The translations under genes were made by a program, and so were the position numbers. A stretch of DNA of 64,000 bases from Nannocystis pusilla (GTDB lineage Bacteria; Myxococcota_A; Polyangia; Nannocystales; Nannocystaceae). The notes beneath the pieces were generated by a model. It was not told where the DNA came from. It ran no database searches and saw nothing but the letters and a program-made list of their open reading frames with translations. Location of the stretch: positions 285,990-349,989 of the forward strand of contig NZ_JAIRAU010000047.1 of the NCBI RefSeq assembly GCF_020073745.1. Reading direction: 5' to 3'. Positions 29,358 through 37,788 of this stretch are shown here, piece by piece. Positions within the stretch are counted from its first letter, which is position 1. Every line of letters starts with the position of its first letter.

Positions 29358-30722
29358 GTGTCCGCCCGCACGCTCCTCGCCGCCGCCTCCCTCGCCCTGC
29401 TCGCCCTGGCGCCCGCGTCGGTCCGCGGCGGCGAGTCGAGCGCCGAGCGCCTGCACCGCAAGGGCGTGCACTGCATGGAGGAGATCGAGCGCCGCGACTG
29501 CGCGATCGAGCACTTCGAGGAGCTGCTCGACGAGCGCACCGATCGCCGCGAGCTCGTCACCGACGGCCTCCTGCGCCTCGTCAAGCTGTACGAGAAAGAG
29601 GATCGACCCGAGGACCTCAAGGCCGCGCTGCGCCGCTTCTGGGACGCCGGCAAGACCGACACCCGCCGCGGCCACCTGCCCTACACCGCCCGCTTCCTGC
29701 CGAAGGACTTCGACGTCGTCTTCCACGCCCACATGCAGCGCCTCATGGCCGCGCCGCTGGCCAAGCAGCTCGACGAGATCGCCGAGTACGTCATGACCTG
29801 CGACCCGCACGTGCGCGCCCAGCTCGACGACGTCCGGATCCTCCGCAAGGCCCAGCGCAAGGCCCGAGAGACAGGTGTGACTGTCCAAAAGGCCATGTCG
29901 GACGTCGTCGCCGAGGAGCACAAGCGGACCGAGGCGTACAAGAAGCGGCGCGCCCAGGCCGAGGCCGAGGGGCGGCCGCGCCGGCCCGAGCCGGTGTTCG
30001 CCGACGCCACCTGCCAGGTCGCGCGCGCCCTCGGCGACGACACCGCGGCGGTCTGGACCCGCGGCGCGTTCGCCCTCGCGCACGGCGACTTCACCCGCTC
30101 CGCCGCGATCATCGAGATCCCCGACCTCCCCGCCAAGCTCGAGGCCGCGGTCGCCGCCGGCCGCCTGCTCCCGCGCGGCGAACGGGCCTATGCGCTCACG
30201 CCGCTGCGCTACCAGAACGGCGAGGTGCTGCTGCGCGTGCTCGACGGCGGCGAGCTGGTCGTCGCGCCGCCGGGCGTCATGAACGAGATCGCCGCCAACT
30301 ACGCCCGCGGCAAGCGCACGCTGCCCCGCGAGGTCGACCGCCTCGTCGTCGGCGTGCCCGTCGACGCCGGCTTCTTCGCCGTCGCCACCGAGGCCGCCGT
30401 CCGCGAGCTCGGCTTCGGCGGCATGTCGAAGGGCCGCCGCGGCCTGCTCCAGCTGCTGCTGCCGCGCCCCGAGGGCCTGCAGATGGCCGGCGTGGCCCAC
30501 GAGTACTTCGGCTTCTTCCTCCGCATGCCGACCGACACCCCGCTCAAGGCCGGCGCGCTCGTCGAGGTCGTCCAGCGGATGATCGCCAACCAGGCCGAGG
30601 CCGACTCCGAGAGCGCCGACTTCCTGCGCCTGCTCGACGTGACTCAAGCCACGGACAAGCGCGCGCTCCTCCTGTCGTACGTCATGTCGCGCCGGCAGAT
30701 CGAGACGATCGTGCTGCGCTGA
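29358..30722 (+). CDS. hypothetical secreted protein
   Basis: 454 aa. Signal peptide 'LLAAASLALLALAPASVRG'. No catalytic motif recognised. Confidence 0.45.
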   Translation: MSARTLLAAASLALLALAPASVRGGESSAERLHRKGVHCMEEIERRDCAIEHFEELLDERTDRRELVTDGLLRLVKLYEKEDRPEDLKAALRRFWDAGKTDTRRGHLPYTARFLPKDFDVVFHAHMQRLMAAPLAKQLDEIAEYVMTCDPHVRAQLDDVRILRKAQRKARETGVTVQKAMSDVVAEEHKRTEAYKKRRAQAEAEGRPRRPEPVFADATCQVARALGDDTAAVWTRGAFALAHGDFTRSAAIIEIPDLPAKLEAAVAAGRLLPRGERAYALTPLRYQNGEVLLRVLDGGELVVAPPGVMNEIAANYARGKRTLPREVDRLVVGVPVDAGFFAVATEAAVRELGFGGMSKGRRGLLQLLLPRPEGLQMAGVAHEYFGFFLRMPTDTPLKAGALVEVVQRMIANQAEADSESADFLRLLDVTQATDKRALLLSYVMSRRQIETIVLR

Positions 30723-30732
30723 GCGGCGAGGC

Positions 30733-32445
30733 GTGGCAGTCTTGTCCCCCGTGGCGACCCCCCTGTCGGCCCTCTCGCTGATCGCCTGGCTCGCGCTCGC
30801 CGGCGCGGCGCCTGGCGGTCCGCGCATGTCCCTCGGCGCAGGTCCTGACGGCCAGGTGCGTTCGGGCATGTCCGAAAGTCCAGGCCCTCTGCTGGCCCTC
30901 GCGCCGGCCCGCGGCGGCAAGGCCAAGCCCCCCGCGCCCGAGCCCGCGCCGGCCCCCGCGCCGACCTACGGCCCCGAGCAGGCCCGCGCCGACATCGAGC
31001 TCGTGCTGACCGGCCGCGGCCAAGACTACCTGCAGGCCCGCGCGCGGCTCGAGCAGCACCCGACCGTCGCCGCGCCGCTGGTCACCGCGCGCATGACCGC
31101 CACGCCCGCGCCCACCGCGGTCGAGCAGCGCCGCCTGCTCGCTCTGCTCGGCGGCATCGCCCGCCCCGAAGACGTCCCGCTGTTCGCCGACGCCATGCGC
31201 CGCGACGTCGCCGCCGCGGTCAAGCAGTCGCAGGAGCAGGGCATCGAGCTGCCGGCCGCCGAACCGTGGCGCGAGATCTTGCGCGCCCAGGGCCCGGCGG
31301 CCGCGCCCGCGCTCACCGGGCTCGTGGCCGAGAAGTCGTTCAGCGAGGAGCTGCGCGGCCTCTTGCTCGCCGACCTCGTCGCCGTCACGCCGGCCGACAA
31401 GCTGCCCGAGCTCGTCGCGCTGGTCGGCCTCGGCACGCCGAGCCTGCGCGCCGCGCTGCGCCAGGCGATCGCCCGGCGCGCGCACGCGTCCGCCGGCGAG
31501 CGGGCCCAGCTCGTGCAGGTCGTCGACGCCGCGATCGAGGCCGGCGAACCGGCGCGCCTGCCCGGCCTCGTGCTGCTGCGCGCCGCGATCGGCGGCAGCG
31601 ACGACGCTCCGTTCACCCGGCGCGCGGCCGCCCTCGCCGAGGACGCCGCCGCCGAGTTCGCCGCCCGCGTCGCCGCGCTCCGCGTGCTCGTCGCCCGTCG
31701 TAGCGACCCCGCGGCGCAGACGGTGCTCGCGCGCCTCGCCGAGCAGCACCTGCCCGCCGACAAGCGCGTCGAGCTGCGCAGCGAGATCCTCGGCAGCCTC
31801 GCCCTCGCCGGGCTCGAGCCCGGCCCTGCCGCCGCCGTCGTCGACCGCCTGCAGCTCACCGGCGCCGACGCGCCGCGGGTCGCCGTCGCGGCCTTCTCCG
31901 TCGCCACCCTGCCGGCCGACGGCGCCTGGCTCGACGTCAGCCAGCGCCACGCCTGGCCCGAGGTCCGCGCCGCCGCGCTCGCCCGCGTCGACGGCCCGTG
32001 CTCCGCGGGCGTCCTCCGCCGGCTGCGCGACGGCACCAGCACCTCCGGCAACACCTTCGAGGCCGACGCCGCCGTCGCGCGCGAGGTCATCGCCGCGCTC
32101 GGCCGCTGCGGCGGTCCCGACGCCTTCGCCGCGCTGCAGGCCGTGGTCGTCAGCGCCGAGCAAAACGTCGACCGGCGGGCCGAGGCCGCGCGCCAGCTCG
32201 TCGACCGCCACGGCAGCGCCGGCGCCGACGTCGTCGCCGCCGTGCTGCGCAGCACCGACGACCTCGCGGTCGCGCTCCGCCTCGTGCGCGCCCTGCAGCG
32301 CTACGCCGACGACGAGGCGGCCCCCTCCGACGACGTGCGCACGGCCCTGTGCGCCGCGAGCAAGCGCCAGGAGCTGGCCACGATCGCCCAGCGGGCCGTC
32401 CGCGGCCTGTTCCCCGACCTCGACGACCCCTGCGCGGGCAACTGA
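30733..32445 (+). CDS. hypothetical protein, probable HEAT/ARM-like helical repeat protein
   Basis: 570 aa, Ala/Leu/Arg-rich with repeated helical hairpins. The N-terminal 50 aa are encoded by a 5-unit 14-bp phased palindromic array, so the true start may be the internal ATG at about 30866. Confidence 0.4.
   Translation: MAVLSPVATPLSALSLIAWLALAGAAPGGPRMSLGAGPDGQVRSGMSESPGPLLALAPARGGKAKPPAPEPAPAPAPTYGPEQARADIELVLTGRGQDYLQARARLEQHPTVAAPLVTARMTATPAPTAVEQRRLLALLGGIARPEDVPLFADAMRRDVAAAVKQSQEQGIELPAAEPWREILRAQGPAAAPALTGLVAEKSFSEELRGLLLADLVAVTPADKLPELVALVGLGTPSLRAALRQAIARRAHASAGERAQLVQVVDAAIEAGEPARLPGLVLLRAAIGGSDDAPFTRRAAALAEDAAAEFAARVAALRVLVARRSDPAAQTVLARLAEQHLPADKRVELRSEILGSLALAGLEPGPAAAVVDRLQLTGADAPRVAVAAFSVATLPADGAWLDVSQRHAWPEVRAAALARVDGPCSAGVLRRLRDGTSTSGNTFEADAAVAREVIAALGRCGGPDAFAALQAVVVSAEQNVDRRAEAARQLVDRHGSAGADVVAAVLRSTDDLAVALRLVRALQRYADDEAAPSDDVRTALCAASKRQELATIAQRAVRGLFPDLDDPCAGN
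30821..30885. repeat. five-unit 14-bp phased array (CATGTCC / CAGGTCC / CAGGTGC / CATGTCC / CAGGCCC) at the 5' end of the HEAT-like gene
   Basis: Cores at 30824, 30838, 30852, 30866 and 30881. Confidence 0.8.
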
Positions 32446-32447
32446 CG

Positions 32448-33728
32448 ATGGCCACCGACAAGCCCAGGCTCCGCAAGGTCGAGCGCATGGCGCTGCAGCG
32501 CGGCGACGAGGCGCTGATCGTCCTGCGCGACCCGACCGGTCTCAGCGAGCAGGTCGCCTTCCCCCAGGAGGCCTCCGTCATCCTCGACGCGCTCGACGGC
32601 CAGCGCACCGTGCCGCAGCTGCGCCAGTCGCTGGCGATGCGCGGCATCATCGACATCCCGCTCGCCGACCTCGAGGCGCTGGTGCGCGACCTCGAGAGCG
32701 CCGGCTACCTCGACGACGACGCCTTCCGCGCCCGCTGGGAGGCCATCCACCGCGAGTTCCTCGCCAACCCGGTCAGGCGGCCGCGCTGGGCCGGCCTGCT
32801 CTACCCCGACGACCCGGTTGCCCTCGCCGCCGCCCTGGCCGCCGCACTACCTGACCCTTCGGCCAGGCTCGCCGACACCAGCGACACCCTCGGCGTGCTC
32901 CTGCCGCACCAGCCGCTGCCGGGCACCGGCGCCGCCCCGCCCGAGGCCGCCGTCCACGCCGCCGCCGGCCTCGGCGACGAGGTCCTGCGCGGCCTGCCGC
33001 GCGCCCGCGACATCGACCTCGTCGTCGTCCTCGGCACCGACTACCACCCCGGCCTGCAGCCGTTCGTCATCACCGACAAGCGCTACGCCACCCCGCGCGG
33101 CGAGCTGGCCAGCGACCCGGCGCTGGTCCGCGCGCTCGACCGCCGCCTGCCGTGGATCCGGCGCGAGGAGATCCGCCACCGCGAGGCGCTGAGCCTCGAG
33201 CTCGCCGCGGCTGTCCTTCAGCACCTGTACGATGGAGCATGTCCTCCGGTACTCCCGGTGCTGTGCGGGCCCGGCGCGATCGAGCTCGACGACGGCGGCC
33301 CGGTCGAGGGCTTCCTCGCCACCATGGAGCATGTCCTCGAGGACAGGCGCGTGCTCTGGTGGGTGACCGCCGAGCTCGGCCACGAGGGGCCGGCCTACGG
33401 GCGCGCGCCGCTGACGCGGGAGCGGGCCGCCGCCCTCGTGGCCCGCGATCGGGCCTGCCTGGCCGCTCTGGCCGACGCGCGGCCCGAGCAGCTGGAGCGC
33501 TGCTGCAAGGGCGTCCCGGGCCTCGACCCGCCGAGCGGCACCGCGGCCCTCGTCACCGCTGCGCGTCTGTTCCCTGTCGGCTACGGGGCCGACCTCGTCG
33601 CCTACGCCTCCGGCCGCCCGGTCGGTCCCGACGACGGGTGGGTCGGCCTCGGCGGGGTCCGCTTCACGCGGCCCGTCGACCTCGGCGACGACGACGACTT
33701 CAGACCCGCGAGCCTGCGAGCCTCATGA
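32448..33728 (+). CDS. fusion protein: N-terminal PqqD-like RRE domain and MEMO1-family domain
   Basis: 426 aa. N-terminal 'ALIVLRDPTGLSEQVAFPQEASVILDALDGQRTVPQLRQSL...LVRDLESAGYL' fits the PqqD/RiPP-recognition-element pattern. The C-terminal part aligns to MEMO1/AmmeMemoRadiSam-B landmarks ('LLPHQPLPGTG', 'VVLGTDYH', 'YATPRGEL', 'WWVTAELGHEG'). Confidence 0.5.
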   Translation: MATDKPRLRKVERMALQRGDEALIVLRDPTGLSEQVAFPQEASVILDALDGQRTVPQLRQSLAMRGIIDIPLADLEALVRDLESAGYLDDDAFRARWEAIHREFLANPVRRPRWAGLLYPDDPVALAAALAAALPDPSARLADTSDTLGVLLPHQPLPGTGAAPPEAAVHAAAGLGDEVLRGLPRARDIDLVVVLGTDYHPGLQPFVITDKRYATPRGELASDPALVRALDRRLPWIRREEIRHREALSLELAAAVLQHLYDGACPPVLPVLCGPGAIELDDGGPVEGFLATMEHVLEDRRVLWWVTAELGHEGPAYGRAPLTRERAAALVARDRACLAALADARPEQLERCCKGVPGLDPPSGTAALVTAARLFPVGYGADLVAYASGRPVGPDDGWVGLGGVRFTRPVDLGDDDDFRPASLRAS

Positions 33729-34292
33729 TCTGCTCGACGGCCTGCTCGACCGTCAGCGGGATCCGGCCCTGCGGGTCGACCGACGCCTGGGCCGCCAGCC
33801 CGTAGATCACGGCGATGATGCCGCGGGCCACCACCTGCGGGTCCCCGGCCAGCACGCCCTGCTCGACGCCGCGGCGCACGATCTCGGCGTAGGCCGTGCG
33901 CATCTCGGCGAACGTCTTCTCGAGCTTCTCGCGGTACTCCTGGATCTGGCCCGACATCGTCACCAGCAAGTTGCAGAGCTTGGCCTCGTCGCCGTGCTCC
34001 ACGAACAGGCGGAGGTGGTTGCTCGCCACCTGCGCGAGCGCCCGGTCGGCCGGCAGGTCCGGCGGGATGTCCGCCGCCCAGCGCTCTTGCAGGGCCAGGA
34101 GCTGCGCGTCCAGGATGTCGTGGAACAGCGACTCTTTGGCCTTGTAGTGGAAGTAAACCCCGCCCTTGCTGAGGCCGGCGTCGCGGGCGATGTCCAGGAG
34201 CCGCGTCGAGGAGTAGCCGCGGCGCACGAAGCACCGCGTCGCCGCAGCCCTGATCTGCTGCTTGCGCTGGTCGTCGATCTTCTGGCGTGTCA
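33700..34292 (-). CDS. TetR family transcriptional regulator
   Basis: About 197 aa from ATG 34292 (MTRQKIDDQRKQQIRAAATRCFVRRGYSSTRLLDIARDAGLSKGGVYFHYKAKE). Classic TetR HTH. Its 3' end overlaps the convergent upstream gene. Confidence 0.75.
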
Positions 34293-34617
34293 TCGCTGCT
34301 CCCCACCCTCCCGGCGCCTGGCCAGCGCCCCCGGCCTCCACGCTAACGGAGACCCCCACCGGTCTGTAAAGCCGCCTCGCACCCTCACAGACGACGGGTG
34401 ATAATGGCCCTCTCGCCGCGAACGGCCGCGTAGAGGTGGCCAGGCCGCCGGATCGGCCCCGCCGCGGCGCGCGGGCGGTATCGGCCCTCGCACGCGTCGA
34501 TCTCCGTCGCCGTGAGCTCCCTGCTGGCGGGCGATGCCGCCCCGCGCGAGGCTACCCCTTGGCCAGACCCCCTCCTGAATAAGACACTAAGTCGCGCGTC
34601 CTGGACGCCGAGGTTTT

Positions 34618-35298: not shown

Positions 35299-35940
35299 TC
35301 AGGAGCGCGAGCCGGTGCGCGCGTGGGCGCGGCGGCCCGGCACGTCGGCGCGCTGCATCGGCGCCGGCGGCAGCTCGAGCCGCGGGTCGGCGGGCTGGCT
35401 GCGGCGCAGCACGTCGAGCGAGACCTCGTCGAACTCGTCGTCGACGTCGTCCTCCTCGAGGTCCTCGCGCGCGGTGAAGCGGCGGCGGAGGATCAGCGCC
35501 TCGTCGGCCTCGTCGCCGAGCTCCTCCTCGTCGACCTCGTCGAGCTCGGCCGGATCGGCGCACGGCGGCTCGAGCTCGAGCTGGGCCGGGCCGGCGCGCC
35601 GCTTGCGAGCCGCGGGGGCGGACTTGCCGGCCGGGGCGTTGAGGCTCGCACGCAGCTCGACGCCCGGGCGGAAGTCGATCGTGAAGGCCGCGTCGATCGT
35701 CATGGGCTCGAGCGTCCGCGGGTTGACGCCCTTGCGAGCCGAGCGCTTCTTCTTGGTGAAGGTGCCGAAGCCGGGGAACGTGAAGCGCGGGCTCTGGGCC
35801 CGCGTCACCCTCGCCTTGACGAAGTAGGCGGCCATCTCCCCGAACGCGATCTCGAGGATCTGCTGCACGCACTTCTTCGTGATGTCCGGCGGCAGATCAC
35901 GGTTGCGTGCGATTTTTTCGATGAGTTCAGCCTTCGTCAT
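35299..35940 (-). CDS. HU/IHF-family DNA-binding protein with long charged C-terminal extension
   Basis: 213 aa. N-terminal 90 aa match the HU fold ('MTKAELIEKIA', 'GFGTFTKKKRSARKGVNPRT'). The C-terminal 120 aa form an acidic/Ala/Arg-rich tail. Confidence 0.7.
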   Translation of the reverse strand: MTKAELIEKIARNRDLPPDITKKCVQQILEIAFGEMAAYFVKARVTRAQSPRFTFPGFGTFTKKKRSARKGVNPRTLEPMTIDAAFTIDFRPGVELRASLNAPAGKSAPAARKRRAGPAQLELEPPCADPAELDEVDEEELGDEADEALILRRRFTAREDLEEDDVDDEFDEVSLDVLRRSQPADPRLELPPAPMQRADVPGRRAHARTGSRS

Positions 35941-36156: not shown

Positions 36157-37788
36157 TCAACTTCGCAGCACGCGCAGCGCTCGCTCGAGGTCCGACATCA
36201 CCGTGTCGTCGGCCGGATTTCGCTGCCCCGGAGGGAGTTCACCCTCGCGTCGGATCACGTACGACGGATGATACGTGACGTGAAGTGGGATCTGCAGGCC
36301 TGCACCCGGGTCGTCGTAGGTCCAACGACGGTTGCGCATCTGTGCCAACTTCAGATCCTGATCGGTGCCGGTCAGCAACATCCCCGCGTGCCGGCCGAGC
36401 GCCACGATCACCGCGGGACGGATCGCCCGGATCTGGGCGCGCAGGAACGGCGAGCACTTCTCGATCTCGTCGGCGGCCGGTTCGCGGTTGCCGGGCGGCC
36501 GGCACTTCAGCACGTTGGCGATGTAGACCTGCTCGCGCTTCATGCCCAGGCGCTCGATCCACTGCGTCAGCCGCCGGCCGGCAGCGCCGACGAACGGCTC
36601 GCCGCGCCGATCTTCGTCCGCGCCGGGCGCCTCGCCGATGAACATCACCCGCGCGTCGGGGTCGCCGACGCCGAATACAATGTTCGTGCGGGTCTTCGAG
36701 AGCTTGCAGCGGGTGCAGTCGCCGACGTTACGGGCCCGCAAGTACTCGAGCTTCTGCGCCGGCGTCCACGCCTGAGCCTGCGCGCGTAGCGAGGCATCGC
36801 CGGCCGGGCGCGGCGCGCCCTCGGCCGCACGCGGCGGTGCCCCCTGATCCGCCAGCGGCAGGCTGACCGTCCGGGGCCGCGGCGACGGCTCCGCGGGCTG
36901 CTGGTGGACCGTGCGAGCGCGCGGCGGCTCCGCGGGCGCGCGCGAACGCGGTGCATCTTGCGGCGGCGGCTCCCAGTCTGCAGGGCCCCGCTGCGTGCGC
37001 CCTCGCGTCGTCTCCTGCGGCGACGACTCGCGGTCTGCATGGCCCCGCTGCGCGCGCCCTCGCGTCGTCTCCTGCGACGACGCCTCCCGGTCTGCAGGGC
37101 CCGGCTGCGCGCGCCCTCGCGTCGGCTCGTGCGGCGACGGCTCCCGGTGTGCAGGGCCGGGCTGCGCGCGCCCGCGTGTCGTCTCCTGCTGCGACGACTC
37201 CCAGTCTCCGGAGCCCGACTGCGCGCGCCCGCGTGTCGTCTCCTGCGGCGGCCACGGCTCCCAGTCTCCGGGGTCCGGCTGCGCGCGCTCTCGCGTCGTC
37301 TCCTGCGGCGACGGCTCCCAGTCATCCGGGCCCGGCTGCGCTCGACCGCGTGGCGTCTCTTGCGGCAGCGACGGCTCCCAGTCCTCGGGGCCCGGCTGCG
37401 CGCGCCCTCGCGTCGTCTCCTGCGACGGCTCCCAGTCCGCCGGGCCCGGCTGCGCGCGCCCTCGCTTCGTCTCCTGCGGCGGCGGCCCCGAGGCCGCGCC
37501 CGGCTGTGTGCGCGCTCGCGGCTCGGGATCGCGGGCGGATCTGGCCTGGTCTTCGGGCCATGTCGGCGCGCGCGCCCCCGCGGCGGTGCGCTCGGTCGCC
37601 TGTCCGGACGGCCAGGTGCTGTCCGGCGCCGGCGATCGCTCCTCGGGCGCGGAGATCGGCGCGCTCGCGCGACGCGGAGAGGCCGCGGCGGACACGTACG
37701 CCAGACCGCGGAACTCCCGGAGGTGACGCAGGTGGGCGGCGAACTGAACCGCCAGCCGCCGGGTCGCGTCGCGTCGATCGCCTTCCAC
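36157..37788 (-). CDS. family-4 uracil-DNA glycosylase with N-terminal tandem-repeat extension
   Basis: The C-terminal 200 aa carry UDG-4 motifs: '[20 protein letters not shown]', '[13 protein letters not shown]', 'HPSYVIR', and a 4Fe-4S Cys cluster 'CTRCKL'. The N-terminal 330 aa form an in-frame Pro/Arg-rich repeat tract. The start codon is uncertain. Confidence 0.65.
36960..37500. repeat. about 9 tandem copies of a roughly 57-60 bp repeat (19-20 aa unit '[19 protein letters not shown]') inside the UDG N-terminal extension
   Basis: Direct reading: 'ggctcccagtc[tc]...gggcccggctgcgcgcgccctcgcgtcgtctcctgcg' recurs head-to-tail. The peptide repeat is visible in the ORF translation. Confidence 0.8.

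Follow-up and report, generated by a model that had tools for sequence, protein, structure and literature searches.

The gene and its domains

The subject of this analysis is a gene in a 64,000-nucleotide stretch of DNA from Nannocystis pusilla (contig NZ_JAIRAU010000047.1, positions 285,990 to 349,989 of the forward strand), the whole of which is referred to below as the window. The gene encodes a fusion of a RiPP recognition element (RRE; RiPP stands for ribosomally synthesised and post-translationally modified peptide) with a domain of the MEMO family, and is called RRE-MEMO here. An earlier note, made from the letters of the DNA, had proposed such a fusion. Profile searches, AlphaFold2 (AF2) models and Foldseek comparisons all agree that the fusion is real, the N-terminus having the PqqD-type RRE fold and the remainder being a MEMO-fold domain. 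The gene and its parts are listed here; the clade is the group of closest relatives, defined below.

32448..33728, + strand: RRE-MEMO fusion gene, complete open reading frame (ORF), 426 aa plus stop codon
32463..32711, + strand: PqqD-type RRE, residues ~6-88, three β-strands followed by three helices
32718..32765, + strand: linker helix between RRE and MEMO, residues 91-106, with F93 and R94 invariant in the clade and W97 nearly so
32775..33668, + strand: MEMO/LigB-fold domain, residues 110-407, by Pfam, NCBIfam and Foldseek
33669..33725, + strand: acidic C-terminal tail, residues 408-426, RPVDLGDDDDFRPASLRAS, of low model confidence and differing in length between homologues

The window has a GC content of ~73%, and the GC content of the ORF at the three codon positions (0.81/0.51/0.94) is like that of its neighbours and typical for genes of the window. 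The 450 nt that lie in frame upstream (31998-32447) have values of 0.98/0.80/0.55, which is a non-coding pattern, and the ATG at 32448 is therefore taken as the start; the N-termini of homologues are consistent with this. The ATG follows the stop codon of the upstream gene (gene B, below) with a spacing of 2 nt. The best homologue is a protein of Nannocystis radixulma with 97% identity, labelled 'AmmeMemoRadiSam system protein B'. We considered whether the gene might be a pseudogene, and rejected this on the grounds of its strong conservation and its coding-type codon-position GC.

The protein consists of two domains, an RRE and a MEMO/LigB domain, connected by the linker helix. The full-length AF2 model, for which a 36-sequence alignment of the clade was the input, has a pLDDT (predicted local distance difference test) of 91.4 and a pTM (predicted template modelling score) of 0.87. 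No signal peptide was recognised by eye at the N-terminus, so the protein is probably cytoplasmic.

The N-terminal domain

For the N-terminal domain of the window protein, no library model scores above threshold, and the weak matches converge on RREs. Pfam PqqD (PF05402) gives 13.4 bits against a gathering score of 23.4, and is found at E<=10 in 8 of 20 clade members, with a best value of 5.5e-4; counting all three of PqqD, PaaA-like_N and the PKMT winged helix, each gives weak matches in 8-10 of the 20. The pantocin enzyme PaaA (PDB 5ff5) matches residues 19-95 with an E value of 0.23 when the single sequence is used and 0.0066 with the full-length profile. With a profile of the N-terminal domain it is the top PDB sequence match (residues 43-95 against 44-95, E 6.6e-4), and the same profile also matches the PqqD structures 3g2b and 5sxy (E ~0.15). 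Two full-length relatives exceed the PqqD gathering score, P0103 with 35.1 bits and P0213 with 23.8 bits, each of them also with a Memo score of ~120 bits. Because the weak matches converge, and because these two relatives pass Pfam PqqD alongside Memo, the assignment of the domain as an RRE is well supported.

The AF2 model of the domain (pLDDT 94) has strands at residues 12-18, 21-27 and 36-39, followed by helices at 42-48, 55-64 and 72-85, and its closest structural neighbours are solved RREs, these being structures of RiPP enzymes. The residues D28, P29, A37, L46, D50, G51, Q57, R59, Q60, L62, G86 and L88 are invariant in the clade. The domain also has a 'P-x-L-R' segment near the N-terminus and a 'DG-x-R-T' turn, both of which we take to be typical of PqqD. 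When the N-terminal profile alone was run against a database of 5.8 billion proteins, it returned gene fragments only. It is worth adding that TAL-effector repeats came top in the PDB search with the full-length profile; these arise artificially, from numerous weak repeats that match 'PSGAAAL..LLPV', and were discarded.

The MEMO domain and its metal site

The remainder of the protein is a member of the MEMO family (PF01875), by a profile score above the curated cutoff and by its MEMO/LigB fold. Pfam Memo matches residues 112-351 (E=8.8e-11, 41.9 bits against a cutoff of 27), and TIGR04336 (AmmeMemoSam_B) matches residues 110-401 (E 4.5e-11, 42.5 bits against a cutoff of 26). The first Foldseek match in the PDB is human MEMO1 (3bcz, E 9.2e-13), with a template modelling (TM) score of 0.76 when normalised to the target; the next matches are TK2203, an archaeal protein, and LigB-type extradiol dioxygenases.

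Human MEMO1 binds iron and copper through H49, H81 and C244, and the mutations C244S and H49A abolish iron binding; D189 and H192 lie in the same pocket, near the metal site without being ligands (PMC11081632). These five positions were mapped onto the window protein by hhalign against MEMO1, by a 55-sequence alignment of the family, and by a MAFFT alignment of 313 members with MEMO1, whose reference sequence is identical to the PDB chains over residues 4-297. A separate, global hhalign alignment displaced the C244 region by a few residues, and the family and MAFFT alignments both pair the CG of MEMO1 with an SG. The corresponding codons are as follows.

32907..32909, + strand: H154, equivalent to MEMO1 H49; present here, H/Y/S across the clade
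33042..33044, + strand: Y199, equivalent to MEMO1 H81; ligand lost, H/Y/L/R/F across the clade
33372..33383, + strand: E309 to H312, within the motif AELGH, at the positions of MEMO1 D189 and H192; E309 and H312 unchanged throughout the 36-member clade alignment
33534..33539, + strand: S363-G364, equivalent to the 'CG' of MEMO1 C244-G245; Cys replaced by Ser

The metal triad of MEMO1 is thus replaced in the window protein by H154, Y199 and S363. The earlier note had spoken of MEMO1 landmarks, and had proposed a check of the metal-site residues. The landmarks are mostly missing from the window protein, in which two of the five residues are kept (H154 and H312) and three are changed (Y199, E309 and S363). 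All 36 members of the clade alignment have serine at the position of S363, as do 80 of 315 aligned sequences, so that it is nearly invariant in the clade at large. By alignment, it is the natural counterpart of the C244S mutation of MEMO1. We also looked at the EHS motif. The canonical 'EHSIE' reads 'ALSLE' (A247-L248-S249) in the 55-sequence alignment, which places L248 opposite MEMO1 H131, whereas hhalign pairs H131 with H244.

The altered site is the property of a clade. The canonical RRE-Memo members have the pattern HHDHC (H49/H81/D189/H192/C244) in 226 of 226 sequences, whereas in the window clade (~76-80 sequences) the pattern is x-x-E-H-S, as all three alignments agree. Clade members are >=33% identical to the window protein, and canonical members <=32%. 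The named members of the clade are all Nannocystis, its range beyond them being drawn from synteny only. There are 37 invariant columns among 36 clade sequences, which include R110, W236, R239, E240, R243, R245, E251, C273, R301, E309, H312, D334 and S363-G364, and two members share on average 56% identity in the RRE and 50% in the MEMO domain. Judged from its sequences, the clade is clearly under purifying selection, and the change at the metal site looks like remodelling rather than decay. The new element here is a clade without the MEMO metal site; we found no report of the state of the metal site in the literature.

The residues that are fixed in the clade suggest one specific alternative, which is that the protein is a metal-independent hydrolase or acyl-transferase, in which a Ser-His-Glu group (S363, H312 and E309) would act on a peptide presented by the RRE. 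The replacements of C244 by Ser and of D189 by Glu are fixed together in the ~76-80 sequences, with H192 kept and with G364, the residue following S363, invariant; the equivalent three residues of MEMO1 surround the same pocket (PMC11081632). However, the geometry of S363, H312 and E309 is assumed, and the residue pattern fits a non-catalytic binding pocket equally well. A Ser-His-acid triad has no precedent known to us among proteins of the LigB/MEMO fold, and we regard such an enzyme as unlikely.

Size and spread of the family

The earlier note described the fusion as unusual. This was an overstatement, since the fusion forms a large family that spans many phyla and has already been catalogued. 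Among 1.84 billion representative proteins, a profile search gave 4792 matches at E<=1e-3 and 732 clusters at E<=1e-30. Among the best 150 matches, ~140 are ~370-450 aa long and span the profile from ~2-27 to ~350-400, with both domains, the rest being fragments. A search with a profile of the canonical clade gave 1678 clusters (90% identity) at E<=1e-10, many of them with precomputed PF05402 and PF01875 annotations, and with named members from Kofleriaceae, Methylomirabilia, Chloroflexi and Dehalococcoidia. In contigs representing one genome per species, at least 547 stretches encode a relative of RRE-MEMO. The best 80 of these all cover query residues ~1-420, and most of them are labelled as Polyangia/Myxococcales, Methylomirabilota/Rokubacteria, Binatia, Chloroflexota, Verrucomicrobiota, Nitrospinota, Tectomicrobia, Poribacteria, Gemmatimonadota, Acidobacteriota, Thermodesulfobacteriota or Sumerlaeota.

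Bregman et al. (mSystems 2025; PMC12710340) mention 'Memo-like proteins (PF01875)', in one sentence, among RRE fusions that are 'unprecedented in RiPPs', and Table S1 of this RRE-Finder paper lists a hidden Markov model (HMM), RREFam044 'Memo_RRE', without a function or substrate. RRE-MEMO is a widespread, multi-phylum family, catalogued in 2025 and uncharacterised.

Genomic context in the window and the clade

Pfam annotation covered ~20-41 kb of the window and six loci of the clade (L001 to L006), and a motif scan across the full 64 kb took in the candidate genes retained by a filter on codon-position GC. The closest neighbours of RRE-MEMO are the following.

29358..30722, + strand: gene A, first of a co-directional trio, 454 aa, with a signal-peptide-like N-terminus and no family match
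30733..32445, + strand: gene B, co-directional and upstream of RRE-MEMO, ~530-570 aa, all-alpha, the window copy without a Pfam match
33700..34359, - strand: TetR-family regulator, convergent, TetR_N 3.4e-13, found in all six clade loci

In the annotated part of the window, the order is ClpB-like AAA ATPase, response regulator, HflX, UppP, QueA (- strand), gene A, gene B, RRE-MEMO, TetR (- strand), lipoprotein, HU, UDG, CoaBC, RibBA and RibE; three genes of this block have no family match. The block from QueA to the rib genes is repeated in L002 to L006, and in part in L001, so that the neighbourhood of RRE-MEMO in the clade is one of housekeeping synteny.

Gene B lies upstream of RRE-MEMO in 5 of the 6 clade loci, with minus-strand genes inserted between the two in one case (L002/L003). 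Its orthologues begin with a short hydrophobic stretch and share four invariant cysteines, so it is probably an exported protein. The listed GTG start at 30733 adds an N-terminal extension of ~45 aa that is missing in the orthologues, and the true start may be further downstream. It had been called HEAT-like, a description for which the window copy offers no Pfam match and the L002 orthologue a weak one to HEAT_2.

The convergent TetR gene after RRE-MEMO was correctly described. Its 3' end overlaps RRE-MEMO by 29 nt (33700-33728), and in L004 and L005 the pairs abut or overlap by a few nt. The constant pairing with a regulator is what might favour a different view of the N-terminal winged helix, namely that it binds DNA and that the protein is a one-component regulator with a MEMO-like pocket for sensing a ligand. 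The domain is however acidic, with a pI of 4.8, its relatives match Pfam PqqD, and the order of its elements in the AF2 models differs from that usual in DNA-binding winged helices, so that we consider this very improbable.

The intergenic gaps that flank RRE-MEMO are 2-258 bp, and so leave no space for a hidden precursor gene beside it. The six clade loci contain no protease, transporter, radical-SAM or YcaO gene and no conserved small ORF; the clustering of small ORFs in these GC-rich loci gave a single low-complexity component, and the negative result for a precursor rests on the intergenic gaps.

Two other genes of the block have unusual features. The minus-strand UDG gene (36157-37788), for a protein of the uracil-DNA glycosylase family, contains a 57-nt tandem repeat at 36959-37486 (9.2 copies, 83% match), which encodes units of ~19 aa within an N-terminal extension of ~370 aa, the UDG domain occupying residues 372-517 only. 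The HU-family protein (35299-35940, - strand, 213 aa) has its Bac_DNA_binding domain at residues 1-101 and a C-terminal extension of ~110 aa, and its orthologues across all the syntenic loci are likewise long, at 183-215 aa.

Genomic context of the canonical relatives

For the canonical relatives, the sample was the best 80 loci of the at least 547. Across these 80 loci there is no partner gene common to different phyla, and neither here nor in the clade loci does RRE-MEMO lie in a RiPP-like gene cluster. These results bear on the most obvious role for an RRE fusion, that of a RiPP tailoring enzyme, in which the RRE would bind the leader of a precursor whose gene lies at some other place in the genome, and the core peptide would be modified by the MEMO domain. 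RiPP precursors encoded in trans do occur, the N-terminal domain has the RRE fold, and its closest structural neighbours belong to RiPP enzymes. Furthermore, the authors of RRE-Finder count Memo fusions as candidates for new RiPP chemistry (PMC12710340). Against it are the housekeeping synteny that the six clade loci share (queA to TetR, HU, UDG, coaBC and the rib genes), the lack of a common partner across phyla in the 80 canonical loci, and the loss of the catalytic metal triad in the window clade, and we judge it to be an outside chance. The peptide substrate predicted in the earlier note is still a prediction; no conserved short ORF or RiPP machinery was found by the gene or by ~90 relatives. 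Small ORFs beside the relatives in L007 and L010 were considered as precursors and rejected, being mutually unrelated; that of L010 is SelW/Rdx-like by eye.

Three contexts recur within lineages.

Binatia-like and 'Deltaproteobacteria' metagenome-assembled genomes, 14-16 loci: ApbC/Mrp and DUF59 (FeS_assembly_P) directly upstream
Rokubacteria/Methylomirabilota: M20 peptidase upstream (12 loci), and a weak, sub-threshold DUF1285 protein downstream (10 loci)
Polyangia and the clade member L001 (L001, L007, L008): Kelch protein, Ser/Thr kinase, and a PEGA- or TPR-like membrane protein

In the first of these, the DUF59/FeS_assembly_P protein is ~99 aa long and is encoded ~80 nt upstream of RRE-Memo in 16 loci, with the ApbC/Mrp iron-sulphur carrier ATPase in 14. 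Loci of this type include L018, L022, L023, L026, L029, L033, L034, L039, L042, L043, L045 and L046, with examples at L033:5577-5954 and L077:3750-4874. The adjacency may be functional, or it may merely be synteny within a lineage. Human MEMO1 has been connected with iron homeostasis, and the RRE-Finder paper also names DUF59 as an RRE fusion partner (PMC12710340).

In the second, the M20-family peptidase gene stops ~10 nt before RRE-Memo (for example L047:4754-5989, and L015, L017, L027, L028, L031 and L035). The DUF1285-like protein, again below threshold, has ~170 aa, and in L016 its gene overlaps the 3' end of the Memo gene (L016:7164-7691).

The third context (L001:4985-9973, L007:3054-7935 and L008:1289-4144, the last without the Kelch-repeat protein) is shared between the two kinds of protein. 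The block of Kelch protein, kinase and ~400-aa membrane protein flanks the canonical RRE-Memo of L007 and L008 and the metal-site-deficient one of L001 alike, and these common flanks suggest that the metal-site-deficient clade arose at the same locus by vertical descent. The ~400-aa minus-strand neighbours were examined as a possible conserved partner family and dismissed. Those of L001 and L007 are TPR/PEGA-like with a terminal hydrophobic, probably membrane-spanning segment, and that of L002 is a zinc-ribbon protein with hydrophobic segments, which does not belong to the same family.

The name under which homologues appear at NCBI and JGI implies a role as component B of the AmmeMemoRadiSam system, acting with AMMECR1 and a radical-SAM activase, and the TIGR04336 score is well above its cutoff. 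However, no AMMECR1 or radical-SAM gene was found in the window, by Pfam or by the filtered motif scan, nor by Pfam in the six syntenic loci; the earlier note, which had seen no such partner near the gene, was right in this. Within ±8-10 kb of ten Pfam-annotated loci there is no AMMECR1 or radical-SAM gene except one of the MiaB/RimO type (L009). By motif scans, 3 of the 80 loci have radical-SAM-like ORFs and a single one has an AMMECR1 motif. This last is L072, the sole locus of the 80 that ties the family to AmmeMemoRadiSam components. Three plus-strand genes at L072:4414-7260 encode a canonical 279-aa Memo, AMMECR1 (TIGR04335, 187 bits) and, directly downstream of it, RRE-Memo. The stand-alone Memo bears the PHAGY, SSDLSH and CG motifs. 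Since a separate canonical Memo already lies beside AMMECR1, RRE-Memo is a distinct paralogue there and not the B component of the system. As the window protein has in addition lost the metal ligands, we think it most unlikely that it is an ordinary component B, and calling RRE-Memo proteins 'AmmeMemoRadiSam system protein B', as the databases do, is misleading. The radical-SAM gene of L009 (6439-7734, - strand), on a metagenome-assembled contig of ~6.7 Mb, encodes a MiaB/RimO-type methylthiotransferase rather than a PflA-like partner and is divergent from RRE-Memo; this arrangement was seen once.

Proposed function

The best overall explanation, which we favour with moderate confidence, is that RRE-MEMO binds a peptide or a protein tail, and that in the window clade it does so with a remodelled pocket that lacks a redox metal. 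In this proposal the RRE is predicted to dock a linear peptide or protein terminus as an added strand beside β3, and to hold it against the MEMO pocket. In the canonical relatives, this pocket would probably be an iron or copper site that acts on a side chain of the peptide. In the window clade it would no longer bind a redox metal in the manner of MEMO1, so that the protein would work without a metal, as a binder, reader or adaptor, or possibly in acid-base catalysis by S363, H312 and E309. As the probable ligand we see a conserved peptide or protein of the cell whose gene lies elsewhere, and not a local RiPP precursor.

Several points weigh against this proposal. The ligand of RRE-MEMO is putative, and peptide binding by the RRE is itself a prediction. 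The arrangement in which the groove of the RRE faces the MEMO pocket, and S363, H312 and E309 are close together, is assumed. A different metal site could possibly be formed by E309 and H312 with further residues. In addition, the Nannocystis gene is tightly coupled with two apparently exported proteins, a link that a cytoplasmic peptide reader leaves unexplained.

A bolder version of the same idea can be put forward, though it is speculative and on balance we doubt it. The canonical 2-His-1-Cys RRE-MEMO proteins would show that the ancestral job of MEMO was to act on a side chain of a peptide or protein, and the Nannocystis clade would be a natural 'C244S' derivative, either a metal-free reader or pseudoenzyme or a Ser-His-Glu catalyst, directed at the same conserved peptide.

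MEMO1, which bacteria and humans have in common, has been implicated in the migration of cancer cells and in the handling of iron and copper. What it primarily does at the molecular level is still described as unknown (PMC11081632). That a large family of bacterial proteins has MEMO joined to a domain for peptide recognition is an argument for MEMO pockets acting on peptides, and the ligand of the RRE would be an experimental handle on MEMO function. If the ancestral role was indeed to act on peptides, the unsolved function of MEMO1 could be approached through bacteria. The window clade is in effect a natural experiment, in which the scaffold appears to have been kept under selection after the loss of metal ligands, and it may help to separate the binding and redox functions of the MEMO fold. 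Because the fusion itself was catalogued in 2025 and the window copy is a degenerate version, we consider the finding to be of moderate importance.

Comparison with known systems

LigB-type extradiol dioxygenases have a 2-His-1-carboxylate Fe(II) site (H12/H61/E242), in place of which the window protein has H154, Y199 and S363. Winged helices are also found in the JmjC ribosomal oxygenases MINA53 (2xdv) and NO66 (4diq) and in the rickettsial PKMT2 (5doo), but these proteins have cupin or methyltransferase folds and the winged helix is not N-terminal.

Among RRE proteins, PqqD (5sxy, 3g2b), TfuB1 (6jx3), TbiB1 (5v1u) and PbtF (8t19) are stand-alone RREs found beside a precursor and a partner enzyme; unlike these discrete RREs, that of the window protein is joined to MEMO, and no precursor is encoded close by. 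PaaA (5ff5), the pantocin A enzyme, likewise has an N-terminal RRE fused to a catalytic domain. However, PaaA is part of a RiPP gene cluster and its catalytic domain is E1/ThiF-like; in the window protein that place is taken by MEMO, and the gene lies outside such a cluster.

Human MEMO1 (3bcz, 7kq8, 7l5c, 7m8h) has the same fold, with an identity to the window protein of only ~14%, and has no RRE. Its residues H49, H192 and G245 are kept in the window protein as H154, H312 and G364. MEMO1 binds iron or copper through H49, H81 and C244, of which H81 and C244 are replaced in the window protein by Y199 and S363. The pocket of MEMO1 also binds a phosphotyrosine peptide of ErbB2 (PMC7694686).

Finally, the Memo_RRE family (RREFam044) has, like the window protein, an N-terminal RRE followed by PF01875 Memo, and canonical members such as P0103 and P0213 align with it over the full length at 25-32% identity. 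The likeness is one of shared architecture and of alignment to canonical relatives. The difference lies in the metal site, which reads HHDHC in the canonical members and x-x-E-H-S in the sub-clade of the window.

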